From Vicinamibacterales bacterium (GTDB taxonomy: Bacteria > Acidobacteriota > Vicinamibacteria > Vicinamibacterales > UBA8438), in the NCBI GenBank assembly GCA_965215105.1, contig OZ244051.1:3074896-3138895 (forward strand): a stretch of 64,000 bases of DNA. Direction: 5' to 3'. Below are positions 2,295-22,489 of this stretch, piece by piece. Position 1 is the stretch's first letter. Each line of letters starts with the position of its first letter. Below the pieces are notes generated by a model. The model was not told the DNA's origin. It worked only from the letters and a program-made list of their open reading frames with translations, and ran no database searches. Made by a program: the position numbers and the translations under genes.

Positions 2295-3320
2295 ATACAC
2301 GACTCCGCCTACAAGCTCTTGTTCTCGCGCCCGCGCATGGTCCGCGACCTGCTCGACGGCTTCGCCGCCCGAAGCTGGAGCGGCGTTTTCGACTTCGAGT
2401 CGCTGGCCCCCCTGCCCGCCAGCTTCGTCGGCCGGGAGCTCCAGCAGCGCCACGGCGACCTCATCTGGCGCGTCCGCTTCCGCAACGACCGCTGGCTCTA
2501 CCTGGTCCTGCTCCTCGAGTTCCAGTCCACCGTCGAACCGGCGATGGCGGTGCGCATCCTGGAGTACACCGCATTGCTCTACCGGCGGCTGGTCGCTCAC
2601 GGCGTGCTCCGAGAACACGGGGCCCTGCCGCCGGTGCTGCCCGTCGTCCTCTACAACGGCCGGCGGCGGTGGACGGCGCCGGTCGAGGTGACGAACCTGC
2701 TGGCGGCGGGAAGCGACGTGCTGGCGCCGTACCAGCCGTCGCAGCGATACTATGTTCTGGACGTGGCGCGCGCGCCGGACGCCGAACTGCCGGCGGGCAA
2801 CCTGGTGTCGGCGCTCATCGGTCTGGAGAAGACGCGCGACGCGGCGGGCCTGCGCGAGGCGCTGAAGGTGCTGTCCGACCTTCTGCGGAAACAGAAGGAC
2901 GATGCGTTGACGCAGGCTTTCGTGACGTGGCTGCACCAGGGGCTGCGGCATGCGGGTCGGCTGCCGGCGGACGGGGAGAACCCGTTGGCGCAGTTGCAGG
3001 AGACGCAGACGATGCTGGAAGAGACCGTGCGGGAATGGACGCGTGAATGGCTCGAGCAGGGCATCGCCCGGGGCATCGAGAAGGGCATCGAGCAAGGACG
3101 CGCCCAAGGCATCGAGCAGGGCCGCCAAGAAGAGCGAGCGCTGCTCTGCCGTCTGGCGGCCCGGAAGTTCGATGCCGGGGCCGCCGAGGGACTGGCCGCC
3201 GCCCTGGCCGGCGTCACCCACCCGGACCGCCTTGCGCGGGTCGGCGACTGGATCATCGAGTGCGCGACGGCGCCCGATCTGCTGGCCCGCGTCCGCGGCG
3301 ACAACGGGCCGGGCGGCTGA
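2295..3320 (+). CDS. Rpn/YhgA-like PD-(D/E)xK recombination-promoting nuclease (putative transposase), copy 1; canonical start codon is ATA
   Basis: AYKLLFSRPRMVRDLL, GDLIWRVRF...LYLVLLLEFQS (D...ExQ core) and a C-terminal GIEQG repeat with a DUF4351-like tail. The position homologous to the copy-2 ATG (7399) reads ATA at 2295-2297. Confidence 0.65.
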   Translation: MHDSAYKLLFSRPRMVRDLLDGFAARSWSGVFDFESLAPLPASFVGRELQQRHGDLIWRVRFRNDRWLYLVLLLEFQSTVEPAMAVRILEYTALLYRRLVAHGVLREHGALPPVLPVVLYNGRRRWTAPVEVTNLLAAGSDVLAPYQPSQRYYVLDVARAPDAELPAGNLVSALIGLEKTRDAAGLREALKVLSDLLRKQKDDALTQAFVTWLHQGLRHAGRLPADGENPLAQLQETQTMLEETVREWTREWLEQGIARGIEKGIEQGRAQGIEQGRQEERALLCRLAARKFDAGAAEGLAAALAGVTHPDRLARVGDWIIECATAPDLLARVRGDNGPGG

Positions 3321-3661
3321 GGCGCCGGCGGCGGGACCCGGCGGCGACGCGGCATCGCCGTCGAACGCGAACGGATCGCGCGTTGGGCGCCCCCGACGAC
3401 AGCTCACTTTTCGACGCGCACCCCCACCGGACCGTTCCCTCTTGCGGCCGGTACGACAACACCGCGGAGCGTGCGGTCGCGGCGCAGCTTCATCGCGGCG
3501 CAGCTTCAATCCGAAACCGGTTCGACAGTCGAGGGAGCTCCGCGGTCGCCCGCTGGTCGTCGGTGCCAGGAGATGAACGAAGCCGGTCGACCGCACGTCC
3601 AAACGGGCACGGAGCAGGAACGAAAACGGGGGCGCGGGGTCCAAACGTCCCAGGGGAAGAG

Positions 3662-6600: not shown

Positions 6601-6976
6601 CGGTTCGGGAGGCGATGCGTTCCCGTGGTTCTTCCGCGAGATGGACGCAGGCGTCCTCGTGGGCGAGCGCACGTGGGGCGGCCTCATCGGCCCCGCCTCG
6701 GGACATCAGCTCATAGACGGCGGCTTCTACACCGCGCCGCCCGGGCGGCTCTACCGAAACGACGGACGGTGGTTCGCGGAAGGTCACGGGGTCGAGCCGG
6801 ACATCGCGGTGGCGGATCACCCCGGCGAGCTGGCCAAGGGGAACGACCCGCAACTCGACGCCGCCGTCGCGGAGCTCATGCGCCGGATCCGGGAGAATCC
6901 TCCGGCCCTGCCCCCGCCGCCCGGTGACGAGCGCCGGGTCGTCACCGATTCCAACGGCGGGAACGAGGACCGTTAG
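3662..6976 (+). CDS. Tricorn protease homologue (S41-type, beta-propeller + PDZ + peptidase), secreted
   Basis: MRYFTATLTLLFSLGATLTWAQ signal peptide. MLRYPDVSETQIAFVYAGDIWVV is a tricorn N-terminal signature. Repeated SPDG propeller motifs and a C-terminal DERWNGGG peptidase region are present. The upstream part of the 3047 ORF is discarded. Confidence 0.85.
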   Translation: MRYFTATLTLLFSLGATLTWAQIDARMLRYPDVSETQIAFVYAGDIWVVTKEGGSARKLSSPPGEESFPRFSPDGAQIAFSGNYNGNNDIYVVPTLGGAPFRITHHPGDDRVLDWTPDGRGVLLASNRRSGLPSFRQIYRVAAEGGQPERLAVPYGEFGALSPDGRRIAYTPETRGFRTWKRYRGGAAPEIWLLDLETLDAENVSDSPANDAQPMWHGDTLYFLSDRGPAQRYNIWAHDLATGSKRQVTTFTDFDITFPAIGPSDLVFQAGGRLFRLDLATERVSAVEVDVVTDLAALVPRTADVANRIASAGISPTGQRAVFEARGEIFTVPARHGAVRNLTHSSGAADRFPAWSPDGRWIASWSDSGGEYELTLHRADGAGEPQVVTALGPGFRYRPFWAPDSTKLAFIDHTQRIYVFDRETGALTEVDRGLHMLHGALAGFELSWSHDSRWVAWSRGLETTNSAVFLFDTEAGERFQVTSGYYNDFRPVFDPAGKHLYYYSNRTLAPVYSDLDATWVYPNATNVVAATLRDDVPSPLAPRNDEEPVAEDDDEAEPGEEAAEEADDDGPGSDGEDDAATTPLDIDVDGFESRAVMLPVEAGNFGRLRAVDGKVVFHRRPHAGGAGDQPSPIVAYDLEEREEQTILPDGDSFEISADGKKLLVSNERSWAIVDVAPGQTLEDRLATNALTMTLDPPAEWRQMFDEVWRTYRDYFYDDDLHGLDWNGLRAQYGGLIDQAVTRWDVNFLIGELIGEVNASHTYVGGGDTETPRRRGVGLLGVDWSLENDAYRIARIVRGAPWDIEDRSPLDEPGVDVDKGDYLLAVNGNPLDPARDPYSAFEGLAGETVLLTVNDRPTVDDAREVVVTTLRSEATLRMRDWIEQNRLRVDDASGGRIGYVYVPNTGVPGQTELVRQFNHQHDKDGLIIDERWNGGGQLPDRFVELMNRETVGHIYFRHGATARHPTITHRGHKAMLINGQAGSGGDAFPWFFREMDAGVLVGERTWGGLIGPASGHQLIDGGFYTAPPGRLYRNDGRWFAEGHGVEPDIAVADHPGELAKGNDPQLDAAVAELMRRIRENPPALPPPPGDERRVVTDSNGGNEDR

Positions 6977-7398: not shown

Positions 7399-8495
7399 AT
7401 GCAGGACGCCGCCTACAAGCTCTTGTTCTCGCGCCCGCGCATGGTCCACGACCTGCTCGACGGCTTCGCCGCCCGAAGCTGGAGCGGCGTCCTCGACTTC
7501 GAGTCGCTGGCCCCCCTGCCCGCCAGCTTCGTCGGCCGGGAGCTCCAGCAGCGCCACGGCGACCTCATCTGGCGCGTCCGCTTCCGCGACGACCGCTGGC
7601 TCTACCTGGTCCTGCTCCTCGAGTTCCAGTCCAGGAGTCTGTGCCGTGAAACGGCGCGGATTCCTGGAGGGTTGGTTGGGCGCCCAGCGGAGCCGCAGGC
7701 GACGATGGGCGGGCTACCGTCGACCCAGCGATGGCGGTGCGCATCCTGGAGTACACCGCGCTGCTCTACCGGCGGCTGGTCGACCACGACGTGCTCCGAG
7801 AACACGGGGCCCTGCCGCCGGTGCTGCCCGTCGTCCTCTACAACGGCCGGCGGCGGTGGACGGCGCCGGTCGAGGTGACGAACCTGCTGGCGGCGGGGAG
7901 CGAAGTGCTGGCGCCGTACCAGCCGTCGCAGCGATACTATGTTCTGGACGTGGCGCGCGTGGCGGACGCGGACCTGCCGGCGGGCAATCTGGTGTCTGCG
8001 CTCATCGGTCTGGAGAAGACGCGCGACGCGGCGGGCCTGCGCGAGGCGCTGAAGGTGCTGTCCGACCTTCTGCGGAAACAGAAGGACGACGCGTTGACGC
8101 GGGCATTCGTGACGTGGCTGCACCACGGGCTGCGGCATGCGGGCCGGCTGCCGGCGGACGGGGAGGACCCGTTGGCGCAGTTGCAGGAGACGCAGACGAT
8201 GCTGGAAGAGACCGTGCGGGAATGGACGCGTGAATGGCTCGAGCAGGGCCGCGCCCAGGGCATCGAGCAGGGCCGCATCCAGGGCATCGAGCAGGGCCGC
8301 CACGAAGAACGGGCGCTGCTCTGCCGTCTGGCGGCCCGGAAATTCGACGCCGGGGCCGTCGAGGGGCTGGCCGCCGCCCTGGCCGGCGTCACCGACCCGG
8401 ACCGCCTTGCGCGCGTCGGCGACTGGATCATCGAGTGCGCGACGGCGTCGGAGCTGCTGGCCCGCGTCCGCGGCGACAACGGGCCGGGCGGCTGA
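7399..8495 (+). pseudogene. Rpn/YhgA-like nuclease, copy 2, interrupted by an 83-bp insertion
   Basis: MQDAAYKLLFSRPRMVHDLL...LLLEFQS is followed by a frame break. The remainder (MAVRILEYTALLYRR... to GDNGPGG) is in the ORF 7731-8495. Confidence 0.8.
7633..7715 (+). other. 83-bp insertion of unknown origin inside rpn copy 2
   Basis: Absent from copy 1, which reads gagttccagtcc|accgtcgaacc. It contains the hairpin gccgtGAAacggc and the 10-bp palindrome tgggcgccca. Its length is not a multiple of 3. Confidence 0.8.
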
Positions 8496-8977
8496 GGCGC
8501 CGGCGGCGGGGACCCGGCGGCGGCGCGGCATCGGCGTCGAACGCGACCGGATCGCGCGTTTGAGCGCCCCGACATCTTCTCACCTCTCGACGCGCACCCC
8601 TGCCCGACCGTTCCCCCTTGCGGCTTCTCGGACGACAACACCGCGGAGCGAGCGTCGTGGCGCAGCTTCAACCCAACCGGGCCGCTTGACGTCGATCTCC
8701 AGACGGAGCAGCACACCTCGTCGGGCGTGCGGCCCGCTGCTGAACCACGTGCAAGCGTTGGCGTCTCCCGAGAACGCTGTACCCCCGTTCGTGACGACCT
8801 CGACAGCCGGGAACCCGCGCCCGGCGGTCGACGCATTCGTCGTCGCCAACGTCGCTACGGGAGTCTGACCCCGAACTTCGTCTATCATGACGCCCGCGAG
8901 GTCAAGCCGGCGCTCGCCGGGGGCCTTGCGAGGAAGGCGTCTGGCAGTCAGCGCCAACACCGCGGGATGAGGTGCCG

Positions 8978-9082
8978 CCGGGAACGTCATGACCGTTGAT
9001 TCCAAGTCCCGAAGGACCGCCGCCGCACCGGACTTCCACATCGCGCGGTGCTACCGGGAACGTCATGACCGTTGATTCCAAG
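8978..9082 (+). repeat. 29-bp direct repeat (8978-9006 and 9054-9082) duplicating the SNF2 gene start region
   Basis: ccgggaacgtcatgaccgttgattccaag occurs twice, 76 bp apart. Each copy carries an ATG. Confidence 0.9.
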
Positions 9083-12000
9083 GGGCGCGAGCTCTTCATC
9101 GTCGACAACAGCGTCTCCGGCTGGACCGGACTCCGGTACCTGGAGGAGTGGTGCGGCATCGCGAAGGCGTTCGACATCGCGACCGGGTACTTCGAGATCG
9201 GCGCCCTGCTCACCCTCGACGGCAGATGGCAGGGACTCGACAAGATCCGCATCCTGATGGGGGCGGAGACGACCCATCGGACCCGGAAGGCCATTCTCGC
9301 CGCCGTCCGGGCGCAAGCGCTCGACAGGCTCGACGAGAGCATCGAGGAGGACAAGCAGCCGAACCCCTTCCTGCACGGGGTCCCTGCGATCCTCGACGCC
9401 CTCCGCTCCGGGCAGATCGAGTGCCGGGTCTACGACAAGGACAAGTTCCACGCCAAGGCCTACATCACCCACGCCAAGCTCGAGGTAGTGGGCGCCCAGG
9501 CGCTGGTGGGATCCAGCAACTTCACGCCGCCGGGTCTGACGAAGAACGTCGAACTGAACGTCCAGATCCAGAGCGCGCGCGAGGTCGCGCAGCTCCAGGA
9601 GTGGTTCGAGACGCACTGGCACGAAGCGAGCGACGTCACCGAGGCCGTCATCGAGGCGGTCTCGCGCCATACGCACCTGTACTCGCCGTTCGACGTCTGC
9701 GCGAAGGCCCTGCAGCAGTTCTTCCGGGGGCACGAGCTGACCGCGACCGAGTGGGACGAGAGACGGTCGCGCATGTTCCCGCACCTCGACCGCTATCAGA
9801 GGGAGGCGTACTGGGCGCTCATGAAGATCGCCCGGCAGCATCTCGGCGCGTTCCTCTGCGACGGCGTGGGCCTCGGCAAGACGTTCGTCGGTCTGATGCT
9901 GATCGAGCGGCTCGTCCTCCACGAAGGCAAGCGTGTCGCGCTGTTCGCACCGAAGGCAGCCAAGGAGGGAGTATGGGAGCCCCACCTGCGTCAGTGGCTC
10001 CCGCACATCGGCGGCGTCGGCGGTGGCGCGGACTTCAGCAATCTGGCCGTGTTCAGCCACACCGACCTCGGACGAAGGGGGGACTTCCCGGCGCGTTTCC
10101 GACGCATTGCGGAACTCGCCGACGTCGTCGTCATCGACGAGGCGCACCACTTCCGCAACCCCGGCCGCCGGGAGGACCCCGAAAAGGGAATCGAACCGTC
10201 GCGCTACTACCGCCTGTTCGATCTGCTCGACAACGCGGAACGCCCCAAGACCGTGTTCATGCTGACGGCCACGCCCATCAACAACCGCCTGAGCGACTTC
10301 CGCCACATGACCGAGCTCTTCACCCGTCGCGACGAGGCCTACTTCGCGCGCACGATCGGCGTGAACAACCTGCGGGCCCACTTCAACCAGATGGAGAAGA
10401 CACTTCGCAGCCGTGTCGGGCAGGACGCGGCGGACGCCGCGGAGCACATGACCGACGCTCAGGAGATCCTCCTGACCGACGAGATCTTCCGCCAGCTCGT
10501 CGTCCAGCGGAGCCGCGCGTACGCCCGCGAAAGCCAGATTCGCGAGCACGGCAAAGCGACGGCCTTCCCCGAGCGGAAGGACCCCCAGGTGGCGGCGTAC
10601 TCGATCCGCAAGACCTACGGACGGATACTCGACCTGTTCGAGAGGGCCTTCGCGAAGCAGAACCCGCTCTTCGCACTCCCGATGTACTACCCCCTGCATT
10701 GGTACCGGGGCCCGGACAAGAACATCGACGCGTTCGAGGAGAACCGCCAGAAACAGGTGGTCGGCCTCATCCGGACCAACTTTCTCAAGCGCTTCGAGAG
10801 CTCCGTCGCCGCCTTCGAGCTCTCCTGCGACCGCCTGCTCCGGAAGCTGCTCGCCTTCGTCGAGGTCCACAGCGAGAGCGCCGCCGAGAAGAAGCGCCTC
10901 GAGAGGTGGAAAGCACAGAATGCCGAGGTCCTGGGCTACGCCGTCCAGCGCCAGCTCGATCTCTGGGGCGAGGACGACACAGAGGGGGACGACGAAGACA
11001 TCGTTCCCCAGGAGATGCTCGAAGCCGTCGTGCGCCTCGACCGGGCCGAGTACGACGTCGAGGAGATGATGTCCGAGACCTTCCTCGACCTCGACCAGAT
11101 CGCGCAGTTCCTCGACGAGGCGCGGAAGTTCGAGCCGAAGCACGACGACAAGCTCCGGAAGCTCATCCGCCTTCTCAAGTCGAAGACGCTGGCCGACCGG
11201 AAGATCCTGATCTTCACCGAGTTCGCCGACACCGCCCGCTACCTCAAGCGTCACCTGGACTCGGCCGGTATCGAGGGCGTCGAGCAGGTGGACAGCGCCA
11301 CGAAGAAGAACCGTGCAGACGTCATCCAGCGCTTCGCGCCCTACTACAACGGCCTCTCCTCCCCGGAGCTCGCCGAGCACGGCCGCGAGGAGATCCGCGT
11401 CCTGATCTCCACGGACGTCCTCTCCGAGGGTCTCAACCTCCAGGACGCCTCGCGGATGATCAACTACGACATCCACTGGAACCCCGTGCGCCTCATGCAG
11501 CGCATCGGCCGGGTGGACCGGCGCATGAACCCCGAGATCGAGAAGCGGCTCGTCGCCGACCGTCCCGACGCGGCCGCCTCGCGCGGCAAGGTCTGGTTCT
11601 GGAACTTCCTTCCGCCCGAAGAGCTGAACGACATCCTCTCGCTCTACACGCGGGTCACGCAGAAGACGCTGCTGATCTCCGAAACGCTCGGCATCGAGGG
11701 CAAGAAGCTCCTCACTCCCGAGGACGACTTCAAGGCGCTGAAGGAGTTCAATCACGCCTACGAGGGCACGCGCACGGCCGTGGAGGACATGCACCTCGAG
11801 TACCAGGCGCTGCTCCAGGCCGACCCGGAGCTGGAGGCGCGCCTTGCCCGCTTCCCCGGCGCGATCTTCAGCGGCCGCGAGCGCGTGGTGAAGGGCGTGC
11901 GCGGTGTCTTCCTCTGCTACGCGCTCCCCGCCCTCGACAAGGAGAAGAACGAGTTCACCGAGGAGGCCGGCACCACCCGCTGGTACCTCTACGACCTCGA

Positions 12001-12214
12001 CCGCGCTACCATCCTCGACGAACCGGGCGAGATCGTCGCGAGCATCCGCTCGAAGCCCGAGACGCCCCGACGCTGCGCCATGGAAGAGCAGACGCTCCTC
12101 GACGTCCGCAAGCGGATCGAAAAGCACGTCAAGAACAGCTACCTGAAGCGCGTGGATGCCCCGGTCGGCGTCAAGCCGCGACTGCGCTGCTGGATGGAGC
12201 TGAACGAGAGCTGA
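9065..12214 (+). CDS. PLD(HKD) nuclease - SNF2 family helicase fusion
   Basis: FHAKAYITH...GSSNFT is an HKD motif. The SNF2 motifs DGVGLGKT, VVIDEAHHFRN, LTATPINN and NYDIHWNPVRLMQRIGRVDR are present. ATG at 9065 is preferred to the upstream TTG at 8996. Confidence 0.85.
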   Translation: MTVDSKGRELFIVDNSVSGWTGLRYLEEWCGIAKAFDIATGYFEIGALLTLDGRWQGLDKIRILMGAETTHRTRKAILAAVRAQALDRLDESIEEDKQPNPFLHGVPAILDALRSGQIECRVYDKDKFHAKAYITHAKLEVVGAQALVGSSNFTPPGLTKNVELNVQIQSAREVAQLQEWFETHWHEASDVTEAVIEAVSRHTHLYSPFDVCAKALQQFFRGHELTATEWDERRSRMFPHLDRYQREAYWALMKIARQHLGAFLCDGVGLGKTFVGLMLIERLVLHEGKRVALFAPKAAKEGVWEPHLRQWLPHIGGVGGGADFSNLAVFSHTDLGRRGDFPARFRRIAELADVVVIDEAHHFRNPGRREDPEKGIEPSRYYRLFDLLDNAERPKTVFMLTATPINNRLSDFRHMTELFTRRDEAYFARTIGVNNLRAHFNQMEKTLRSRVGQDAADAAEHMTDAQEILLTDEIFRQLVVQRSRAYARESQIREHGKATAFPERKDPQVAAYSIRKTYGRILDLFERAFAKQNPLFALPMYYPLHWYRGPDKNIDAFEENRQKQVVGLIRTNFLKRFESSVAAFELSCDRLLRKLLAFVEVHSESAAEKKRLERWKAQNAEVLGYAVQRQLDLWGEDDTEGDDEDIVPQEMLEAVVRLDRAEYDVEEMMSETFLDLDQIAQFLDEARKFEPKHDDKLRKLIRLLKSKTLADRKILIFTEFADTARYLKRHLDSAGIEGVEQVDSATKKNRADVIQRFAPYYNGLSSPELAEHGREEIRVLISTDVLSEGLNLQDASRMINYDIHWNPVRLMQRIGRVDRRMNPEIEKRLVADRPDAAASRGKVWFWNFLPPEELNDILSLYTRVTQKTLLISETLGIEGKKLLTPEDDFKALKEFNHAYEGTRTAVEDMHLEYQALLQADPELEARLARFPGAIFSGRERVVKGVRGVFLCYALPALDKEKNEFTEEAGTTRWYLYDLDRATILDEPGEIVASIRSKPETPRRCAMEEQTLLDVRKRIEKHVKNSYLKRVDAPVGVKPRLRCWMELNES

Positions 12215-12218
12215 GCCG

Positions 12219-13271
12219 ATGCCGACCGACCACCGCGAACGCCTCGCCGGCATCCGCCGCTTCGATCAACTCGTCGCCTACCTGCGCGACGAGCTCGGCT
12301 GGCCGATCGACTCGGACGACTTCGAGGAAGCGACCTTCGAGTACACGCCGGACGAGCTCGGGATCGACGCGAAGAACGCGGCCAAGATCCAGGAGATCAA
12401 GCGCCTGCGACCCCTCGCACCGGGCCAGCCCTGGGGCATCTTCTTCGTGAAGTTCGAACCGAAGCGCCTGCCCGTGGTGGCGCTGCGCCGCATCCTCGGA
12501 CGGGTGGCGCTCAAGAAGCGCGGCTCCGCCAACCCGTCCGAGCGCCAGGCCTGGGCCGCCGACGACCTGCTGTTCGTGTCGAACTACGGTGAGGGCGACC
12601 AACGGCGGATCGCCTTCGCCCACTTCTCGAAGCCGCGCGACGGCCACGACCTGCCGGCCCTGAAGGTGCTCGGCTGGGACAACCTCGACACGCCGCTCCA
12701 CCTCGACGCCGTAGCCAGCGAGCTGCGGGACCACCTCACTTGGCCCGACGACGAGAGCGACCCCGACGCCTGGCGCGACCACTGGCGCGCCGCGTTCACG
12801 CTGCGCCACCGCGAGGTCATCACCACGTCGAAGCAGCTCTCCGCGCGCCTGGCCGTGCTGGCGCGCGCCATCCGCGACCGCACCCGGACCGCGCTGGCCA
12901 TCGAGACCGAGACCGGCCCCCTCACGAAGCTCATGAACGCGTTCCGGACCGCGCTCGTCCACGACCTCGACGAGGCCGGCTTCGCCGACATGTACGCCCA
13001 GACCATCGCCTACGGCCTGCTCTCGGCCCGCATCACCGACCCCGGCCGGCGCACCGCCGACGACTTCGCCGCCCACCTGCGGACGAACCCCTTTCTCCGG
13101 GAGCTGATGGAGACCTTCCTCCATGTGGGCGGCCGCCGCCGCCCGGCCGGCGGACCCGGCATCGACTTCGACGAGCTGGGCGCCTCGGACGTCGTGGAGC
13201 TCCTCGACCGGGCCAACATGGAGGCCGTCGTCCGCGACTTCGGCGACCGGAACCCCCAGGAAGACCCGGTG
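12219..13271 (+). pseudogene. N-terminal remnant of a type ISP/IIG (PglX/DrmMI-class) N6-adenine DNA methyltransferase; catalytic domain deleted
   Basis: FADMYAQTIAYGLLSARI ... [12 protein letters not shown] ... RNPQEDPV matches the pre-catalytic helical region of this class. The sequence breaks exactly where the IHFYE.../NPPY domain should start. The frame changes at 13272-13275. Confidence 0.65.
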
Positions 13272-13275
13272 CGTG

Positions 13276-14019
13276 TCCGAGGAGGTCTGGGGCTTCCACA
13301 TCGGCGGCTATCAAGTTTGCCACAAATGGCTCAAGGACCGGAAGGGTCGCACGCTCTCGGACGAGGACGTCGTCCAATACCAGAAGATCGTCGTCGCCCT
13401 GAACGAGACCATCCGGATCATGACCGAGATCGATGAAATCATCGAAGCCCACGGCGGCTGGCCCGACGCGTTCCGGGCGGGTGCGCAGGCGGGTGCGCCA
13501 TCGCACGGGACCGCGGAGGTGCTCCCGTTCCGGCCGCGGACGGTCCAGCCCGCGCCGGAGGACCGCTACGTCACCTGCGTGCCCCTCGTCCCACTCAAGG
13601 CCGCCGCCGGCGCCTTCAGCGACCCGCAACACATCGACGATGACGACGTCGAGTGGGTATCCTTGGAGTCCGGCCGTCGCCTGCGCAAGGGTATGTTCGT
13701 CGCCCAGGTCGTCGGCAGGTCCATGGCGCCCGCGGTCCCCGACGGCGCCTGGTGCCTCTTCCGGGCGCCCGTCGAGGGTACGCGCCAAGGCAAGACCGTC
13801 CTCGTCCAGCTCCGCGACGCCGCCGACCCCGAGACCGGACAGCGCTACACCGTCAAGCGCTACGAGAGCCAAAAGGCGAAGGGGGCAACTTCTTGGCATC
13901 ACCAGAAGATCGTCCTCGAGCCCGTCAACCCGGACTTCGAGTCGATCGTGCTCACCGGCGCGGACGAAGACGAGCTGCGGGTGGTCGCAGAACTGGTCGA
14001 GGTGCTTGGAGGCCGATGA
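13276..14019 (+). CDS. Type ISP/IIG C-terminal motif fused to a LexA-like S24 peptidase domain
   Basis: [50 protein letters not shown] is the conserved C-terminal end of the class. It is followed by [13 protein letters not shown] (LexA-like cleavage-site region), [11 protein letters not shown] (Ser at 13720-13722) and YTVKRY (Lys). Internal ATGs near 13420 could give a standalone S24 protein. Confidence 0.6.
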
Positions 14020-17000
14020 GTGGCTCCGGAGCAGCTCGAACCGCGTCTGGAGCTGCTCCGCGAGGAGTACGTCCTCGTTCAGGCGTGGAAGAAGACCGCA
14101 TCCTACATCCGCTACCACAACTGGTTTTCCGACACGCTGGCCCTCGACCGAGCGGCCGTGAACCTGCCAACGTTTCTCGGCGAACTGCGCGAGCGTCTGC
14201 AGGCTCCGGAGACTTGGCGGAACGATCCGTTGCGCATCGTTCCGGCGCCGAAGAGGCAGCACTGGAGAGTGCGGGAAGGTGCGTGGGAGCCCGTCAAGGG
14301 AGCGCCCTCGGCGCGGCTTCGACCGCTCGCCCACGTCAGCTTGGAGGAGCAGGTGGTGGCGACGGCACTGATGCTCTGTCTCGCCGACCGGGTCGAGACT
14401 CGGCAGGGGGATCCGTGGCGGTCGGTACGTGATCCGGAATCGCGAAGGCAGGTGGTTTCCTACGGAAATCGGCTGTTCTGCGACGCCGTCGGTAGCGAAC
14501 TACGCCATCGGTGGGGATCGTCCAAGCTCTACCGAGCCTACTACCAGGACTACCGTACGTTCCTCTCCCGGCCGGAAATCGCGGCCGAGGCGGTACCGGC
14601 AGCGGAGGAAAAGCGTGTCTACGTCGTCCATGCGGATCTTCGGCAGTTCTACGACCGCGTCCGCCCGGATCTGCTTTCCGCAGCCATCGGCCGCGTTCGC
14701 CGCGACGGAGATAATGCCGGATTCTTCTCTCTGGCGGCGTCGGTGCTCGATTGGCGCTGGGATCCGCGTGATGGAAGAGACGTCCGGATCTACGCAGGGC
14801 AGGCGGAGCTGGAGGACTTCACGCGGGTGGCGTTGCCGCAGGGGCTCGTCAGCGCGGGCTTCTTCGCCAACGTCGCGCTCCTTTCGTTCGACGAAGCGCT
14901 GCGCGCGGCGATCGGGACCGAGATCGCTTTCGGGATCCGCTTGGTGGATTCGTGCCGGTACGTCGACGACTTGCGGATCCTCGTTGCCGTTGACCGGAAC
15001 TCCGCCACCTCGTCGGACGACCTTGAGACCGCCGTCTCCAGCGTCTCCAGATGGCTGAGCAGGGTGCTGCAAGAGCATGCGCCCGGTCTCGCGCTGTCCC
15101 CCGAGAAGACCCAGGCCGCAGCGCTTGGAGGCGACGAACGGCCGCTGGTGCGACAGAGCGCGAAGATGAACCGCATCCAGTCGGCGGTGTCGGGGGGATT
15201 CGACGCGCTCGGGGGCGAGGAGATCCTCGACGCCATCCAGGGGCTGATGCGCGCTCAGGAAGCACTCAGCGTCGGCGACGACAGCGGCTGGCGATTTTCG
15301 CCGGTTCCAGACGTCCGCAACGAGACGGTCGCCAGATTCGGCGCTGCCCGATATCGAACCACGTTCCGTTCCATCAGGCCGCTGCTCCAGGACGATGACA
15401 CGCCGGACGAGTCTGAGGTTGGAAGAGCCGATACCGCGGCTGGCGGGCGACTGCGGGTAGCGCGCACGCGGCGGGAGCTGGACGAGGATGCGAGGGCGTT
15501 TGCGCTGGGTCTGATTCAGCGGTGGATCGACGATCCGTCGAACGTCCGCCTGCTTCGGATCGGCCTGGATCTCTGGCCGGACGTGAAGCTGTTGCAGGAA
15601 GTCCTCTCATTGCTTCGTCCGTTCACGGAAACGGGGGGCCGTCGCAACGCCCCGAGGCGCGTCGCTTGGTACTGCCTCGCTGAAGTCCTGCGCGCAGGAG
15701 CCACGGAGACGGGCCTCGTGGCGGACACCGAATCGCTCCCAGCGGGGGTCGACGTGGGTCGCTACCGGGAGGAGCTCCGTAAGGAGGCCAGTCGCCTGGC
15801 GACGTTGCCCTGGCCGACCATTCCCTGGTACCTCCGACAGCAGGCACTGCTGTTCCTTGCCGCGTTCGATCCCGCCGGGGCGCCGGTCGTGCGCACGGGA
15901 AGAGCGCCGGAGACCAAGCACTACCGGGAGCTCATCCTATTCCTGCGCGGTGGACTGCACCCGCGACCGGCCTCGGAATTCGCCACTTTCGCGATCCTGG
16001 CTAGGCGCGCGTTCGTGGGTCGAGCACGCGCCGTCGAGCTGACGCGCCCGGCTCTCAATCCCTCGGAGAAGCGGCAGATCGCCCGGAGGGACCCGAGTTT
16101 CCTTCTCGAACTCATCCACGCGGAGACGCAGGGTCTACTCTTCGACGATCTTCCGGCGCGCGTGCGCGAGGATCTGTGCAGGATTACTGATAGTTCGGGC
16201 GGAGACTCTGGCACCTTGGCCGACGCGGTCCTGCGCTCTCATCCGACCGGCTCACTCCGCAACGAGCTCTCCCTTCTCCGCTTCGGGAGGGCTTTTCTCG
16301 AACAGTGGCGGCAGCAGGAGTCTCCGTCCGAGGTGATCACGCCAGGGCAGGTCAAGCTCAACGTCGCCGAGGACCACGGGGTCCCAGACGTAGAAGGCCT
16401 ACGGATAACGGGGAGTCTGGCCGACCCATCGGGGTCCCTGTACGAAGTGCCCGCATGGTGTGAAGCCGGCGAGCGGTGGCGCTTCCAGCTCGGATTCTTG
16501 CTGCGGTTCATCCTGTCGGGGCAGCCGGATTTCACGCGTCCGGTACGCCGGGCGAGTTGGAGAGAGACCGAATTGGCCTATCGTCCTGCCGAGAACCACT
16601 GGTACCAGCGGCTGTACGGCCTGTACAACGGGCAGCCGGCCTTCGGAGACGACTGGCTTCCGATCACGGACTGGACGGAAGGATTCCTCCTCGCCCTCCT
16701 GCGCTGGCCGCGGTGCCGTGCTTCCGAGGGGTTCCGTTGGGTCGAACAGGGCATCGAAGAGGCGAGGACGCAGATTGGCCGGAGGATCGCCGCCCTCGAG
16801 AAACGTCGCGGCAGCGCTACCTGCGCGTTGATCCTGCCGCTGCCGGCCAAGCGACCGACCGCCACGAACGCGAATCGACCGTTACGCGCCTGCGTGGTCC
16901 AGGCGGCCGTTCCGGCGGCCGACGACTTTCGGCACACCGACCTGGCGCTCAACGAGTCCGCAATTCGGCGAAGACACCGCAATCACCTGTCGGCGGCCCT

Positions 17001-17757
17001 CGCAGCCGTGGAACGCATGCTGGCCCTGCGGGAGACGCACAAGGAAAGCGAAGGGCGGCTCGATTGGCTGATTCTACCCGAGCTTGCCGTCCATCCGAAT
17101 GACGTTCGTACTCATCTGGTTCCTTTCGCACGGGCTCACAGGGCGCTGATCCTCACCGGGCTGACCTATGAGGAGGTTCTGGTGGGGCAACCGCTGGTCA
17201 ACTCAGCTCTGTGGATCATTCCGGAGTGGTCGGACGCCTACGGGCTGCAGATCAGGACTCGCCGTCAGGGGAAGGCGCATCTCGCCCCGAATGAGCAGGC
17301 GTTCAACGGAGCTGGCGCCCGTATCCTGCAGGGCTTTCGGCCCTGCCAGTGGTTGATCGGCTATCCGTGGTCTGACGCGGAGGATGCCCAGCCTGCCTGG
17401 CTGACGGCGGCCGTCTGCTATGACGCGACGGATCTTGGTCTTGCTGCGGATCTCAGGGATGAGTCGGATATACTGGCGATCCCGGCGCTCAACCAAGACG
17501 TCAAGACGTTCGACCAGATGGCCCTGGCGTTGCACTACCACATGTTCCAGCTCGTGGTCGTCGCCAACAACGGGCAGTACGGCGGGAGCAACGCCTATTG
17601 GCCGAGGAAAGATGTTGTTGTCAGGCAGGTCTTCCATACCCATGGACAGCCGCAGGCCTCGATCTCGTTCCTCGAAATCGATGACATCGGCGCATTTCTG
17701 GAGCGCCACGACGGAGCCGACTGGAAGCATCCGCCTGCAGGTCTGAACCGTCGCTGA
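14020..17757 (+). CDS. Reverse transcriptase - nitrilase (C-N hydrolase) fusion, DRT1/UG1-like
   Basis: RT motifs: RLRPLAHVSLEEQVVATALMLCL, VVHADLRQFYDRV, LPQGLVSAGFFANVAL, YVDD (14959-14970) and LSPEKT. Nitrilase triad context: LILPELAV, QGKAHLAP and AAVCYDATD (Cys at 17416-17418). The GTG start directly abuts the upstream TGA (14017-14019). Confidence 0.85.
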   Translation: MAPEQLEPRLELLREEYVLVQAWKKTASYIRYHNWFSDTLALDRAAVNLPTFLGELRERLQAPETWRNDPLRIVPAPKRQHWRVREGAWEPVKGAPSARLRPLAHVSLEEQVVATALMLCLADRVETRQGDPWRSVRDPESRRQVVSYGNRLFCDAVGSELRHRWGSSKLYRAYYQDYRTFLSRPEIAAEAVPAAEEKRVYVVHADLRQFYDRVRPDLLSAAIGRVRRDGDNAGFFSLAASVLDWRWDPRDGRDVRIYAGQAELEDFTRVALPQGLVSAGFFANVALLSFDEALRAAIGTEIAFGIRLVDSCRYVDDLRILVAVDRNSATSSDDLETAVSSVSRWLSRVLQEHAPGLALSPEKTQAAALGGDERPLVRQSAKMNRIQSAVSGGFDALGGEEILDAIQGLMRAQEALSVGDDSGWRFSPVPDVRNETVARFGAARYRTTFRSIRPLLQDDDTPDESEVGRADTAAGGRLRVARTRRELDEDARAFALGLIQRWIDDPSNVRLLRIGLDLWPDVKLLQEVLSLLRPFTETGGRRNAPRRVAWYCLAEVLRAGATETGLVADTESLPAGVDVGRYREELRKEASRLATLPWPTIPWYLRQQALLFLAAFDPAGAPVVRTGRAPETKHYRELILFLRGGLHPRPASEFATFAILARRAFVGRARAVELTRPALNPSEKRQIARRDPSFLLELIHAETQGLLFDDLPARVREDLCRITDSSGGDSGTLADAVLRSHPTGSLRNELSLLRFGRAFLEQWRQQESPSEVITPGQVKLNVAEDHGVPDVEGLRITGSLADPSGSLYEVPAWCEAGERWRFQLGFLLRFILSGQPDFTRPVRRASWRETELAYRPAENHWYQRLYGLYNGQPAFGDDWLPITDWTEGFLLALLRWPRCRASEGFRWVEQGIEEARTQIGRRIAALEKRRGSATCALILPLPAKRPTATNANRPLRACVVQAAVPAADDFRHTDLALNESAIRRRHRNHLSAALAAVERMLALRETHKESEGRLDWLILPELAVHPNDVRTHLVPFARAHRALILTGLTYEEVLVGQPLVNSALWIIPEWSDAYGLQIRTRRQGKAHLAPNEQAFNGAGARILQGFRPCQWLIGYPWSDAEDAQPAWLTAAVCYDATDLGLAADLRDESDILAIPALNQDVKTFDQMALALHYHMFQLVVVANNGQYGGSNAYWPRKDVVVRQVFHTHGQPQASISFLEIDDIGAFLERHDGADWKHPPAGLNRR

Positions 17758-17840
17758 TTGCCCTTGAGGGTCAAGAATGCCACTGTTTTCCACAGCAGGG
17801 GCGTCGCGGGTCTGAACATGAGATCATCGGGAGGTTCGTC

Positions 17841-20800
17841 GTGACAACCTTCGCCGCTGGCGCGCGCCGCTTGCCGCTCCACCACGTCACCATCCGCGTC
17901 CCCTGGCACGACGGGGGCTGGACCGGGAAGGTGTGCGCCCGACCGCTGGACAACTCGAGCTGCCTGATCCTGCCCCGCATCGGCGAGGGCCGGCGCGACG
18001 ACGTGGAGACGCGTTGCGCGGGCCGGCGGCTCGACGAGCTCGACCGCGCCGACCTGCCACCCTGCGTGAGCGAGCGCGTCTCGTTCATGGCGCCCTTCGC
18101 GTTCCCGCGGACGATGACGCACCCTTACACGGAGTTCTACCCCGAGACCTACGGGCACTTCGCACCCACCCCCTTCGTGCAGCCGGCGTACTCCGCTGCC
18201 TGCGTGCCCTTCCGATGGGTGCTGCGCGAGAAGGTCGAGGGGAGCCCCAAGGACGACGAGATCGGGATCGCCGATCGTCTGAAGATCGGCTGGTTGCCCG
18301 AGCGCGAGCCCGAGATCCACAATCACCGGGGCCATCAGGTCGATACCGCCTGGGTCCAGGAGCGCGGGAACCAGCTCGCGCTGCTCGACACCTTCTTCGG
18401 CGCGCTCCGACCCCAGGAGTCGCTCTGCTTCTTCTATGCCAAGCGCACCCCGCTCTCCGAACAGTCCCGACGCGTGATCGTCGGCGTGGGCCGCGTGCTT
18501 TCCGTGGGCGACGCCACGGAGTACGCATACAAGGTCGAGAACCCGCCGCTCCAATGCGTGCTCTGGGAGCGCAACGTTGGCCACTCCGTCCGACCCGGCT
18601 TCGCGGACGGCTTCCTCTTCCCCTACCGGGAGGCGTTGGAGCTCGCCGACCGCGAGAGGGTCGACCCCGAAGAGTTCGTGGCCTTCGCTCCCGACGAGCA
18701 CTTCGACGCCTACTCCTACGGCTCGGAGCTCCTGACCCACGATGGCGCCGTGGCGTCCCTCGTGGCCTGCGCGGCGGCGCTGCACCGGATCCGCGACCGG
18801 ATAGAGGGACCGTGGGACGAGGCGCTCGCCTGGATCGACACGCAGCTCAACCGCCTGTGGAAGGCGCGCGGCGCGTTCCCCGGCCTCGGCTCGGCGCTCT
18901 CCGCGTTCGGCTACGAGTGGGGCTTCCAGCACGGGAGCCTGCTCGCCTACGAGATCGAACTGCTGCGAGAACGAGACGGCGGCGACCCGTGGGTGCTCGT
19001 GGAAGCCGTGATGGATGCACCCGGGAAGCTCGGCGGCCCCGTGGCGAAGCTCCTCACCGACGGTCTGTGCAGGGGCTGGAAGCGCCTCGCCGACGAGCGG
19101 CGGGCCCTGCTCCAGCTCCTCGGCCGTTGCGCCGTCTCGGAGGATCAGGCGCTGCGCTTCTACGACACTACGGCACGGGCGGAGGCCGGCATCGAGGCCT
19201 GCGACGCCGAGTTGCTGCGCAATCCGTACCTCATATTCGAACGCGACCGGCGCGCCGCCGACCCCATCGCCTTCGGCGCGGTGGACCGGGGCCTGTTCCC
19301 GGATGAGGCGGTGCGGGAGCAGTTCCCCGTGCCGAAGCCGAGTTTCATCGAAGACCCGGCCGACGAACGGCGGGTGCGCGCACGCGTCGTGGACCTCCTG
19401 GAACACGCGGCGGGCGAAGGCCACACGCTGCTTCCCAGGAGCTGGGTCATCCGCAGGGCGCGGGAGCACGCGCTCCAGCCGCCGTGCCCGCTCGGCGAGA
19501 ACGTGCTCGACGCCTGCGAGGAGAGCTTCGATCCGGTGATCGCGCGCGTCGCGACGCGCGCGGGCGAGCCCGCCTACCAGGTGGCGCGGCTCGTAGAGTG
19601 CCGCAAGATCATCCGCCGCGAGGTGCTCGGTCGGAAGAGGGGAAAGCCGCACGCGGCCGATCACGAGTGGCGTGGGCTGGTAGACGCGGGGCTCGATGAG
19701 CCGCTGCCCGCGTATCCCGAAGAGCGCGAGCTGGAGAAGCGTGCGCGGCGCGAGAAAGCTACCGCGCTCGAGCAGCTCTTCCGCTCGCGGCTCTCCGTGC
19801 TGATCGGGCCGGCGGGGACGGGCAAGACGACGCTGCTACGGATGCTCTGCTCGCTTCCCGGCCTCGCCGAGAGAGGGCTGATACTCCTCGCCCCCACGGG
19901 CAAGGCCCGCGTGCGACTGGAAGAACAGACCCGCATGCGAGGCGCCGGCCAGACGCTGGCGCAGTTTCTGATCCGGCGGCAGCGCTACGACGGGAAGACC
20001 GGCGCCTACTTTCCCAAGCCCAGGGCGCCTCGCTGCGGTGACTACCGGACCGTGATCGTGGACGAGTGCTCGATGCTCACCGAAGAGCAGCTCGCCGCGC
20101 TGATCGACTCGCTCAGCAACGTCGAGCGGCTCGTGCTCGTCGGCGATCCGCGCCAGCTTCCGCCGATCGGGGCCGGCCGTCCGTTCGTGGACATCGTTCG
20201 AGGGCTCGAGCCGGAGAACGTCGAGTTGGTCTTTCCGCGCTGCGGGCCGGGCTATGCCGAGCTCACGATCTCGCGACGCCACCAGGGCGAGGCCCGGGCC
20301 GACGTGCTCCTGGCATCGCACTTCAGTGGACGGCCGCTCGATCCTGCCGCAGACGCCGTGCTGGACGAGGGCGAGGAAAGAACGGACGGACGACTGCGGC
20401 TCGTGCGCTGGAACCACCCGGAGGAGCTTCAGGAGAAGCTCGTTGCCGAGCTGGTCCAGACCCTCGGGCTCGCCGGACCGGACGACGAACTGGGCTTCGA
20501 GGAATCGCTGGGCGGCGCGCGCCGCGGGGACAACCCGTGGGCCTTCTTCTTCAACCGGTTCGGCGACAACTCGGGAGCCGCCGCGCAGGCGGAAACCTGG
20601 CAGATGCTCTCGCCCCGGCGCGCCGGGCTCGTTGGGGTGGATGCACTGAACCGCACCCTCCAGACCCGGTTCCGGGTGAAGGTTCGCGAGCTCGCCGAGA
20701 CGGAGGGGTGGGGCCGCAAGGTGCCGCGGCCCTTCGGCCCGCAGACGCTCCTCTACGGCGACAAGGTCATCAACGTCATCAACCAGCGCCGGCGCGACGT

Positions 20801-21662
20801 CTGGCCGAAGCCGGCGGACGAGGCCTACCTCGCCAACGGAGACATCGGCATCGTCGTCGGGCAATACAAGTACCAGAAGAGCAAGTTCAGGGGCCTGCCG
20901 CGGAAGCTCGAGGTCGAGTTCGCGGGGCAACTGGGCCCCAAGTACGGGTTCCACCCCGGCGAGTTCGGAGACGAAGGGCGCAACCCGCTCGAGCGGGCCT
21001 ACTGCCTGACGGTGCACAAGACCCAGGGCAGCGAGTTCGGCGTCACCTTCGTCGTGCTCACCAACCCGTGCTGGCTGCTCTCACGCGAGCTCCTGTACAC
21101 GGCGCTGACCCGCCACAAGGACCGGCTGGTCATCCTGCACGAGGGCCCGCTCGTCGAGTATCGCCGCTATGCGGGCAACCAGCACTCGGAGATCGCCCGC
21201 CGCATGACGAACCTCTTTGCGGATCCGTTGCCGCGCGAAGTAGCCGTCGACGCCCGGCAACGCTTCCTCGAGGCAGGGCTCATTCATCGAACCGAGCGCG
21301 GTGACCTCGTGCGCTCGAAGTCGGAGCTGGTCATTGCCGACAAGCTTCACGCCCGCGGGATCGAGTACGCCTACGAGCAGCCTCTCGTCCTGCCCAACGG
21401 TCGCACGCGTTACCCGGACTTCACGATCGCGGATCACGCGCGGGGCGTGACCTTCCACTGGGAGCATCTCGGCATGGTCGACGACCCGGGGTACAGAGCC
21501 CGATGGGAGAGGAAGCGTGCCGAGTACCTGGAGTGCGGAATCGAGCCTCACGAGAACGGCGGGGGCCCGGACGGCACGCTGATCGAGACCCGCGACGAGC
21601 CGGGCGGGGGGCTGGACGCAGCGGCGATCGCGTCGGTGATTGACGAAGTGATTCTGGGTTGA
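17841..21662 (+). CDS. SF1 (RecD/AAA_30-like) helicase with a large unassigned N-terminal region and a C-terminal PD-(D/E)xK (Vsr/DUF559-like) nuclease motif
   Basis: GPAGTGKTT, VIVDECSM, VLVGDPRQLPPIGAG, TVHKTQGSEF and LYTALTRHKDRLVIL are helicase motifs. The C-terminus reads RSKSELVIADKLHARGIEYAYEQPL...YPDFTI...FHWEHLG. GGGAGG lies 6 nt before the GTG at 17841. Confidence 0.8.
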   Translation: MTTFAAGARRLPLHHVTIRVPWHDGGWTGKVCARPLDNSSCLILPRIGEGRRDDVETRCAGRRLDELDRADLPPCVSERVSFMAPFAFPRTMTHPYTEFYPETYGHFAPTPFVQPAYSAACVPFRWVLREKVEGSPKDDEIGIADRLKIGWLPEREPEIHNHRGHQVDTAWVQERGNQLALLDTFFGALRPQESLCFFYAKRTPLSEQSRRVIVGVGRVLSVGDATEYAYKVENPPLQCVLWERNVGHSVRPGFADGFLFPYREALELADRERVDPEEFVAFAPDEHFDAYSYGSELLTHDGAVASLVACAAALHRIRDRIEGPWDEALAWIDTQLNRLWKARGAFPGLGSALSAFGYEWGFQHGSLLAYEIELLRERDGGDPWVLVEAVMDAPGKLGGPVAKLLTDGLCRGWKRLADERRALLQLLGRCAVSEDQALRFYDTTARAEAGIEACDAELLRNPYLIFERDRRAADPIAFGAVDRGLFPDEAVREQFPVPKPSFIEDPADERRVRARVVDLLEHAAGEGHTLLPRSWVIRRAREHALQPPCPLGENVLDACEESFDPVIARVATRAGEPAYQVARLVECRKIIRREVLGRKRGKPHAADHEWRGLVDAGLDEPLPAYPEERELEKRARREKATALEQLFRSRLSVLIGPAGTGKTTLLRMLCSLPGLAERGLILLAPTGKARVRLEEQTRMRGAGQTLAQFLIRRQRYDGKTGAYFPKPRAPRCGDYRTVIVDECSMLTEEQLAALIDSLSNVERLVLVGDPRQLPPIGAGRPFVDIVRGLEPENVELVFPRCGPGYAELTISRRHQGEARADVLLASHFSGRPLDPAADAVLDEGEERTDGRLRLVRWNHPEELQEKLVAELVQTLGLAGPDDELGFEESLGGARRGDNPWAFFFNRFGDNSGAAAQAETWQMLSPRRAGLVGVDALNRTLQTRFRVKVRELAETEGWGRKVPRPFGPQTLLYGDKVINVINQRRRDVWPKPADEAYLANGDIGIVVGQYKYQKSKFRGLPRKLEVEFAGQLGPKYGFHPGEFGDEGRNPLERAYCLTVHKTQGSEFGVTFVVLTNPCWLLSRELLYTALTRHKDRLVILHEGPLVEYRRYAGNQHSEIARRMTNLFADPLPREVAVDARQRFLEAGLIHRTERGDLVRSKSELVIADKLHARGIEYAYEQPLVLPNGRTRYPDFTIADHARGVTFHWEHLGMVDDPGYRARWERKRAEYLECGIEPHENGGGPDGTLIETRDEPGGGLDAAAIASVIDEVILG

Positions 21663-21791
21663 CGCTCCTGCGAACTTCGACGGCGACTCCCAAACGCGGC
21701 CAACTGTGAGGGGCAGTGGACCGATCGGGTGTCGAAGAGCCGAGTCGAGGCGCCGGAGCGATTGACGCGGCGCGAAGTACGGAGGGCACGC

Positions 21792-22052
21792 ATGCGAGAG
21801 CGAAGCATCGGGATTCAGGAACTCCACGCGAACCTGGGTAGGTGCCTGGATGAGGTCCGGCGCGGCACGACTCTTTTCCTGACGGATGGCAAGCATCGGG
21901 TGGCTCGCCTCATCCCGGAGCCCGACGCGGCCGTCTCGGGGGGCGGACTTCCCATCGCCTGGAGCGGGCGCCGGCTGAAGAAGACCAAGCCGAGGGCCCG
22001 CCTGCGCGGTGGGGGCAGCATGGCCGACATCGTCAGGGAGAACCGCCGGTGA
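21792..22052 (+). CDS. Phd/YefM-type antitoxin
   Basis: MRERSIGIQELHANLGRCLDEVRRGTTLFLTDGKHRVARLIP. GGAGGG RBS is present. A 4-nt GTGA overlap joins it to the PIN gene. Confidence 0.75.
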   Translation: MRERSIGIQELHANLGRCLDEVRRGTTLFLTDGKHRVARLIPEPDAAVSGGGLPIAWSGRRLKKTKPRARLRGGGSMADIVRENRR

Positions 22053-22489
22053 CGCTGCTCTACCTGGACACGAGCGCGCTGTTCAAGCGCTACGTCGAGG
22101 AGGCCGAGTCGGAGGCGCTGCTCGGCCGGATCGAAGACGCCCCGGCGGTGGGCACGGCCTTGATCACGCGGGTCGAGGTGGCGGCCGCGCTGGCGAAGGC
22201 GGTGCGTGATGATCGCATGCCGTCCTCGGAAGCGCGCGAGGCCGAGAGCGATTTCCTCGACGACTGGGCCGACTTCACGAGAATCGGATTGACGGACGAT
22301 GTGGCGGCGCGCGCTGGCCGCCTCGCGTGGAAGCACGACCTGCGAGGCTACGACGCCGCGCAGTTGGCGGCCGCGCTCGCATGGCGCGAGGCCACCGAAG
22401 ACGCGGAGGACCAGGTCGTGTTCGCCTGCTTCGACAACGATCTGCGCCGGGCGGCTGCGGCGGAGGGCCTCGAGACGTGGCCGGCATGA
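22049..22489 (+). CDS. vapC: PIN-domain ribonuclease toxin VapC
   Basis: LLYLDTSALFKRYVEE carries the N-terminal acidic residue. RGYDAAQLAAAL and VFACFDNDL are typical PIN motifs. Confidence 0.8.
   Translation: MTLLYLDTSALFKRYVEEAESEALLGRIEDAPAVGTALITRVEVAAALAKAVRDDRMPSSEAREAESDFLDDWADFTRIGLTDDVAARAGRLAWKHDLRGYDAAQLAAALAWREATEDAEDQVVFACFDNDLRRAAAAEGLETWPA

Follow-up and report, generated by a model that had tools for sequence, protein, structure and literature searches.

Within a 64,000-nucleotide (nt) stretch of a Vicinamibacterales genome (assembly GCA_965215105.1, contig OZ244051.1, positions 3,074,896 to 3,138,895), hereafter the window, we analysed an open reading frame (ORF) that joins a restriction-enzyme motif to a LexA-like S24 peptidase domain and stops directly in front of the gene for Drt1a, a UG1-type reverse transcriptase (RT)-nitrilase. 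At 13273-14019 the window retains, intact, the 3' end of a now broken gene for a type IIG-like methyltransferase ending in S24, whose S24 domain is a portable module capping three unrelated kinds of phage-defence enzymes, namely type IIG-like methyltransferases, HsdR-like restriction subunits and DruE-like helicases. On balance, we favour the view that this module regulates restriction-type enzymes from their C-terminus by LexA-type self-cleavage, and that in the window it persists as the vestigial, leftover tail of a deleted methyltransferase. In the source genome the feature is a gene remnant of little consequence; the relevant pattern is that of a LexA-type domain under purifying selection, moved onto the C-termini of three unrelated large anti-phage enzyme families. 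All coordinates are those of the window unless a contig is named, and all window genes mentioned lie on the forward (+) strand.

The break was located by comparison with the closest intact relative found, carried by a metagenome contig (L087). With blastn, window 12151-13270 matched L087 1901-3020 (82.8%) and window 13272-14099 matched L087 5250-6080 (80.1%), placing the deletion junction at 13270-13272. There, the window has a single nt in place of 2,229 nt of the L087-type gene (net loss of 2,228 nt), so that the frame shifts at the junction; tblastn with the L087 protein likewise recovered residues 1-351 in one frame and residues 1061-1342 in another. The L087 gene encodes 1,342 amino acids (aa) with N6_Mtase/Eco57I, a complete Type_ISP_C domain (profile positions 1-341) and Peptidase_S24, and the deletion takes out the catalytic domain and most of Type_ISP_C. 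The N6-adenine methyltransferase domain, present in L087 and in another intact relative (L005), is thus absent from the window ORF. On the upstream side, a 5' remnant of 351 codons (12219-13271; positions 153-254 of 1096 of the PADLOC profile REase_MTase_IIG) shares 84% identity with the first 351 residues of the intact L087 protein, and beyond 13271 its frame is out of register and meets a stop at 13434-13436. On the downstream side, the second frame (13108-14019), open from 13108 to its TGA at 14017-14019, matches positions 1014-1075 of the PADLOC type IIG profile and then Peptidase_S24. It comprises the native C-terminal tail of the methyltransferase (13273-13473; the end of Type_ISP_C, through ...HGGWPDAF), a variable linker (13474-13563) and the S24 module (13564-14016). 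The linker corresponds to poorly conserved columns in an alignment of 30 close homologues (alignment A1) and to residues 73-83 modelled by AlphaFold2 at a predicted local distance difference test score (pLDDT) below 50, while the module is delimited by its Pfam match, motifs, fold match and alignment with LexA. The GTG at 13273, with AGGAAG at 13258-13263, is a possible restart codon for the tail; the GenBank annotation of the source genome makes here a sole call, a 199-aa S24 protein starting with MTEIDEII (P0008).

The original prediction, made from the letters of the window, had described this ORF as a type ISP/IIG C-terminal motif joined to an S24 autoprotease domain. The motif was recovered by a Pfam scan of the translation of 13123-14019, in which PF18135 (Type_ISP_C; E 8.6e-11, 41.9 bits) covers only profile positions 290-341 of 342, i.e. 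about the last 50 residues of the domain, and the quoted motif begins at 13285. The fusion is real in intact relatives, but in the source genome it is what a deletion left of such a gene and not a designed join. Further intact methyltransferase-S24 fusions were found in L005 (1,274 aa), L019 (1,299 aa) and L101 (a 1,291-codon open frame), and the homologues therefore include full-length methyltransferases (1,274-1,342 aa in L005, L019 and L087), as the prediction had proposed to check. An S24-less methyltransferase of the same family (L064, 1,124 aa) ends ...EIDEVIEQHGGWPGAFTTGRTTEGGA*, right after HGGWPGAF. Because S24-less relatives stop at this very point, the restriction-enzyme motif of the window marks the methyltransferase's own terminus, and S24 is an optional C-terminal addition to the protein.

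The architecture is conserved, with 2,765 matches in the homologue search, and most of the best 120 (193-431 aa) carry both Type_ISP_C and Peptidase_S24. We rejected these short proteins as a genuine family of ~245-aa tail-S24 proteins starting with MPEEVW, since upstream homology to the methyltransferase continues in another frame or across an insertion sequence (IS); the initial M is a GTG called by the gene caller at the Val of GVPEEVW. The gene is split by IS elements in L001 and L165 and by frameshifts in L004, L169, L027 and L142. In P0109 (238 aa, from a metagenome-assembled genome of Pseudomonadota), an in-frame deletion fuses the first ~35 residues of the methyltransferase (MPDTDHRAALKEIRTFPSLVRYLRDEMGWPI...) to ...TIRIMQEINEVIEQHGGWP and S24, an independent event mirroring the deletion of the window. 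Many of the contigs encoding short homologues bear long-read-style names; sequencing frameshifts are therefore a possible cause of some of the breaks, and, going by these names only, some of the frameshifts may be sequencing errors, a kind to which the 2.2-kb deletion in the window does not belong. A programmed frameshift or phase-variable tract was also rejected, as the breaks vary in position and type (IS, indels, deletions) and have no slippery or repeat sequence in common. In L003 (9870-10080), a methyltransferase ORF ends ...HHAVSLKEVNYLFPLYLSQT* and, 70 nt further on, a tail-S24 ORF restarts at MESSAISNRTREISTIFPLY...; the same Type_ISP_C motif occurs twice there, as if two different methyltransferase alleles had been joined.

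Turning to the S24 domain, the predicted LexA-like site, Ser and Lys were all found at the expected places. PF00717 (Peptidase_S24) matched the window ORF above its curated cut-off (E 1.4e-6, 28.4 bits against 23.3), and scored 28-35.6 bits in the HsdR-like, DruE-like, methyltransferase and stand-alone relatives. The AAAG motif of the putative cleavage site is encoded at 13600-13611, the Ser of GRSM at 13720-13722 and the Lys of TVKRY at 13855-13857. The catalytic Ser of G(R/K)SM and the Lys of TVKRY are invariant both in A1 (n=30) and in an alignment of 20 modules from four host contexts (A3; 39-76% identity), while A1 shows, at the putative cleavage site, an invariant Ala-Ala and a Gly that is at least 90% conserved; a few stand-alone relatives in A3 have AAT or AAS instead of AAG with Ser and Lys unchanged. 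BLASTP against Escherichia coli LexA (P0A7C2) aligned GRSM with GMSM (Ser119) and TVKR with TVKR (Lys156), and paired the cleavage-site region with LLPENSEFKPIVV, AAAG and VAAG standing one residue out of register. We take the Ala-Gly site of the module to correspond to VAA/GEP of LexA and QA/GMF of lambda CI (the slash marking the cut). As far as its sequence goes, the domain thus keeps every hallmark of a self-cleaving LexA-type domain.

Searches of solved structures with the single S24 ORF sequence returned nothing relevant and a profile of the module gave only weak matches, for which reason a fold search was needed. The AlphaFold2 model, of medium confidence (mean pLDDT 76.5), had as its best matches the lambda CI C-terminal fragment including the cleavage site (2ho0), LexA (1jhf, 1jhe, 8trg) and UmuD, with template modelling scores (TM-scores) of 0.56-0.71 normalised on target length. 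All of the top 32 Foldseek matches in the PDB were lambda CI, LexA or UmuD, the first 28 at a probability of 0.99-1.00 and those to UmuD at 0.93-1.00, and RecA-bound LexA was also among them. The modelled structure is therefore consistent with the predicted fold of a LexA C-terminal domain. No helix-turn-helix (HTH) family was matched in the ORF, whose region upstream of S24 consists of the Type_ISP_C tail and the linker. Being devoid of a DNA-binding domain, the module belongs to the S24 family but is not a LexA-type repressor, and database names of homologues such as 'SOS-response repressor LexA' were rejected as automatic mislabels.

We used the S24 ORF to seed a genome survey, which together with ORF and tblastn analysis identified the hosts of the module; the module spans ~155 aa, is 60-75% identical to the window copy and ends VIAELVEVL. 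Beyond the methyltransferases, it terminates 16 HsdR-like type I restriction subunits (~1,180-1,260 aa; Pfam HSDR_N, SNF2, T1R_D3-like and S24), encoded downstream of hsdM or hsdS in type I operons, and six DruE-like helicases (~1,960-2,040 aa; DEAD, Helicase_C, MZB and S24). Stand-alone S24 relatives of ~265 aa are more distant (41-48% identity to the window module). In a neighbour-joining tree of the modules, built on a short alignment and without bootstraps, methyltransferase and HsdR-like hosts are mixed. The ratio of nonsynonymous to synonymous substitution rates (dN/dS) of the module is 0.12-0.28, including pairs from different host classes and with synonymous sites saturated, which indicates that selection acts on the S24 protein. 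When 1.84 billion representative proteins were searched exhaustively, 183 clusters matched the module at E<=1e-30 and 1,108 at E<=1e-10; in these it lies nearly always at the extreme C-terminus. It was internal in P0127 (residues 810-963 of 1166), P0156 (1159-1311 of 1490) and P0135 (301-454 of 651), cases that may reflect read-through into the next gene. Two modules lie 3 kb apart in L025 (6929-7396 and 10001-10468), each 63% identical to that of the window. In our literature searches, no paper was found to describe fusions of S24 with type IIG, HsdR or DruE/Druantia proteins, in line with the original prediction, whose author knew of no report of the architecture; the domain family and its chemistry are already known, while the architecture and its distribution appear to be new.

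Compared with the C-terminal domains of LexA, lambda CI and UmuD (MEROPS S24), the module shares the PF00717 match, the Ser-Lys dyad held in GxSM and TVKR motifs, the Ala-Gly site, located in a closely preceding loop of the form (V/L)PL..AAG, and the beta-rich fold (2ho0, 1jhf, 8trg, 8gmt). It differs by capping 1,200-2,000-aa methyltransferase, HsdR-like and DruE-like proteins in place of following an N-terminal DNA-binding domain, and by an insertion (..DPETGxRY..) before the strand bearing the Lys. The methyltransferase tail of the window is homologous to the C-terminal target-recognition domain of the type ISP enzymes LlaGI and LlaBIII and of the adenine methyltransferase 7lo5, a profile of A1 matching 5ffj (1.8e-13), 7lo5 (3.2e-9) and 4xqk (3.5e-8) among solved structures. 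Of Type_ISP_C, only positions 290-341 survive in the window. Type ISP enzymes are made as one polypeptide, in contrast to the present system, whose helicase and nuclease (SNF2 and PLD/HKD) form a separate upstream protein. To our knowledge, and judging from the chain lengths and alignments of the profile matches, none of the solved type ISP or 7lo5 enzymes carries S24.

The parent gene of the window encoded a type IIG-like N6-adenine methyltransferase of ~1,280-1,340 aa, whose Type_ISP_C target-recognition domain precedes a linker and a LexA-type S24 domain. In one lineage the single-gene DRT1 system (Drt1a) appears to have been inserted directly behind the S24 codons, and in the source genome the 2,228-nt net deletion with its frameshift left an N-terminal stub and a tail-linker-S24 piece. 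In intact enzymes, we propose, the module would act like the C-terminal domain of LexA, lambda CI or UmuD and dimerise; upon a trigger, most likely a filament of RecA on single-stranded DNA (ssDNA) arising from DNA breaks or phage DNA replication, the Ser-Lys dyad would cut AAA/G just upstream and detach the domain, thereby changing the oligomeric or active state of the enzyme. The version we prefer is a built-in restriction alleviation, whereby motor or restriction activity would be lowered when the cell's own DNA is damaged. According to two papers (PMC4231737, PMC11109961), the translocating restriction subunit HsdR of EcoKI undergoes a ClpXP-dependent, DNA-damage-linked proteolytic shut-off that avoids self-restriction, and we propose a functional analogy with it for HsdR-S24 and methyltransferase-S24 proteins. 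The difference would be that EcoKI HsdR is degraded by an external protease, whereas the protease proposed here forms part of the enzyme itself and would make a single cut at a LexA-like site. Should the module respond to RecA filaments in the manner of LexA, lambda CI and UmuD, many environmental bacteria would have their restriction-type defences tied directly, at the protein level, to the DNA-damage signal, which bears on the old question of how self-restriction is avoided (restriction alleviation) and on the coordination of defences with the SOS response.

Several points weigh against this interpretation. The cleavage, RecA dependence and dimerisation of the module are deduced from its sequence and fold; the fold match depends on a medium-confidence model; and the S24-module profile gave weak LexA and lambda CI matches among PDB sequences (E 0.03-0.2). 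In addition, a cut at AAA/G removes the S24 core only, so that regulation would need added dimerisation, autoinhibition or an exposed degron. As for the window copy, the remnant ORF shows no decay, with 248 codons open and all catalytic residues kept; it is called vestigial because the enzyme is lost and not because the module is damaged. Most likely it is indeed vestigial, since no enzyme is left to regulate and Drt1a has its own ribosome-binding site; at most, translation of the remnant, possibly restarting at GTG 13273, would help deliver ribosomes to the Drt1a start.

An alternative reading of the conserved motifs is that the module never cleaves and is a mere dimerisation or RecA-filament-docking domain, with its LexA-like motifs kept for structure or binding. 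The C-terminal domains of LexA, lambda CI and UmuD dimerise and bind the groove of the RecA filament, type I and ISP-like enzymes work by the cooperation of two motors, and 8trg and 8gms are among the fold matches, all of which would suit such a role. We nevertheless hold it to be unlikely: across four host contexts at 39-76% identity, the Ser and Lys are invariant and the Ala-Gly nearly so, which is the pattern of an active protease. The AAT or AAS of a few stand-alone relatives speaks against it as well, as the site varies there while the Ser and Lys do not.

The relation of S24 to Drt1a raises a second alternative, close to the original prediction, which suggested that the S24 domain could act as a RecA- or ssDNA-sensing or autoproteolytic switch for the RT-nitrilase effector. 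In its revised form, the 248-aa tail-S24 product would be a stand-alone UmuD-like protein sensing for, or controlling, Drt1a, its RecA-ssDNA-triggered self-cleavage licensing the RT-nitrilase, with the genes kept together by translational coupling. The predicted coupling is visible in the window at 14008-14022, where the S24 TGA (14017-14019) is immediately followed by the GTG start of Drt1a (14020-14022), with GGAGG at 14008-14012, seven bases upstream; the PADLOC Drt1a profile aligns from residue 4 of the protein. It is also conserved in relatives. A survey of 80 loci, seeded with the Drt1a N-terminus and including 69 with at least 400 nt of upstream sequence, recovered S24 directly upstream of Drt1a in 12, ten of which are among these 69 (in L093 and L095 the upstream sequence runs to the contig edge), and the stop and start overlap as GTGA in eight of the 12. 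The coupling is therefore inherited and recurrent, not a coincidence of the source genome. The junction also extends behind HsdR-like genes, as L018 carries HsdR-S24 followed by a degraded Drt1a N-terminus, with a junction homologous to that of L087, and L113 an HsdR-like gene, an S24 remnant and Drt1a; in L091, only the last 13 codons of S24 are left before Drt1a. Moreover, S24 is present in six of the seven loci in which this methyltransferase family directly precedes Drt1a, while most sampled methyltransferases of the family have none, and the remnant ORF of the window is undamaged, its GTG and Shine-Dalgarno sequence being plausible. These observations favour a dedicated role, and the S24-Drt1a junction, far commoner than chance and occurring behind two host types, counts against our main reading; a functional tie between S24 and Drt1a may therefore exist, as a minority reading.

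A dedicated switch for the RT-nitrilase nevertheless did not stand up to the wider comparison, and its revised form seems improbable to us. DRT1 is a single-gene system giving robust immunity alone; about 18% of drt1 genes adjoin drt1b, encoding a transmembrane protein that is the only reported partner, and no S24 partner is mentioned (PMC13275509). The neighbouring gene (14020-17757; PADLOC Drt1a 1233.8 bits over residues 4-1242; Pfam RVT_1) encodes a full-length Drt1a, and the S24 ORF matched neither Drt1b nor any other DRT component in PADLOC, so that we rejected it as a Drt1b. The remaining 68 of the 80 Drt1a relatives have no S24 upstream, and in several loci (L106 2102-6004, L132, L114 1718-6004 and L133) the stop of S24-less MmeI/Eco57I-type methyltransferases (1,300 aa, 1,428 aa) and the start of Drt1a share 4 nt. 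Drt1a seems to be a repeated neighbour of large methyltransferase genes at their 3' ends, and DRT1 often lies within restriction-like operons and is co-translated with them. Conversely, although 12 of 80 loci is far above chance, most S24 modules have no Drt1a; the module also caps RT-less HsdR-like and DruE-like proteins, and among the methyltransferase-S24 loci examined in S24-seeded searches only L165 has Drt1a. In most S24-Drt1a loci, S24 is part of an enzyme of more than 1,200 aa and not a free protein, and the apparent family of 245-aa proteins results from gene-caller GTG starts in broken genes. The enrichment itself can be explained by one ancestral insertion and recombination within S24, and on the simplest account Drt1a was inserted once or a few times behind a gene ending in S24 and spread through descent and recombination within the module.

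Otherwise, the slot after S24 is occupied by PDC-S68, a Gabija-like pair, a ThsB-like TIR protein, a MORC-like ATPase or unrelated genes, and clustering of the downstream ORFs revealed no conserved partner beyond PDC-S68 in two loci. In L169/L170 (8772-11890), the pair consists of a GajA-like protein (DUF2813/AAA_15, 612 aa) and a UvrD-like protein (427 aa) and starts 6 nt after the S24 stop. A broader extension of the regulator hypothesis would make the module a portable sensor of DNA damage, via the activated RecA filament, on at least three enzyme classes (type IIG-like methyltransferases, HsdR and DruE), switching them post-translationally by self-cleavage and coordinating translationally coupled back-up effectors (DRT1, PDC-S68, Gabija-like) through the same event; we regard it as speculative and rather doubtful. 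Least probable of all, and at most a side effect of a functional domain, is that the segment matters mainly as DNA, i.e. as a shared 3' homology patch where recombination exchanges the defence cargo lying downstream (Drt1a, PDC-S68, Gabija-like, TIR), an idea that would fit the intermixed host classes of the module tree, the very different cargo directly behind the stop codon, the S24-Drt1a junction common to methyltransferase and HsdR-like hosts and hybrid junctions such as that of L003, but that conflicts with a dN/dS of 0.12-0.28 at saturated synonymous sites, implying selection on the protein and not on the nucleotide sequence, and with an amino acid identity of 60-75%, which implies DNA too divergent for homologous recombination to work efficiently at present.

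The host operon consists of an HKD-SNF2 helicase gene, the methyltransferase gene with or without S24, an optional Drt1a and the PDC-S68 helicase. Its first gene in the window, the HKD(PLD)-SNF2 helicase (8996-12214; Pfam PLDc_2, ResIII, SNF2-rel_dom and Helicase_C; PADLOC 'HKD+Snf2' C3a139, 197 bits), also lies upstream of the methyltransferase in more than 30 related loci. The PDC-S68-type RecD-like helicase (17841-21662; PADLOC PDC-S68, 1506.7 bits), on which our literature searches returned no paper, is the usual third gene and comes next after the methyltransferase in L004, L046, L064 and L083. Drt1a is placed between methyltransferase-S24 and PDC-S68 in the window and in L089, L090, L101, L115, L142 and L165, and downstream of PDC-S68 instead in L130. 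A scan of 8500-22200 for promoters and terminators found nothing above shuffled sequences, a comparison that is uninformative in such G+C-rich DNA.

Other genes were observed around the module in related loci and beside the operon of the window. Directly upstream of the DruE-S24 gene of L031 lie, at 22-4548, an Eco57I-like methylase, DarT and a Macro-domain (DarG-like) gene, and in L026 a PHP and DNA_pol3_alpha gene (DnaE-type polymerase; 8309-9691) overlaps the end of the DruE-S24 gene. IrrE-like Peptidase_M78 genes recur beside S24-bearing genes (L009 5323-6468, L004 14764-15912 and L166 10310-11299), paired with DUF4411 in L004 and L166. To the left of the defence operon, the window carries two YhgA/Rpn-like Transposase_31 ORFs (1632-3320 and 7731-8495), and between them a gene for a Tricorn-like protease (3047-6976; PD40, Tricorn_C1, PDZ_Tricorn and Peptidase_S41).

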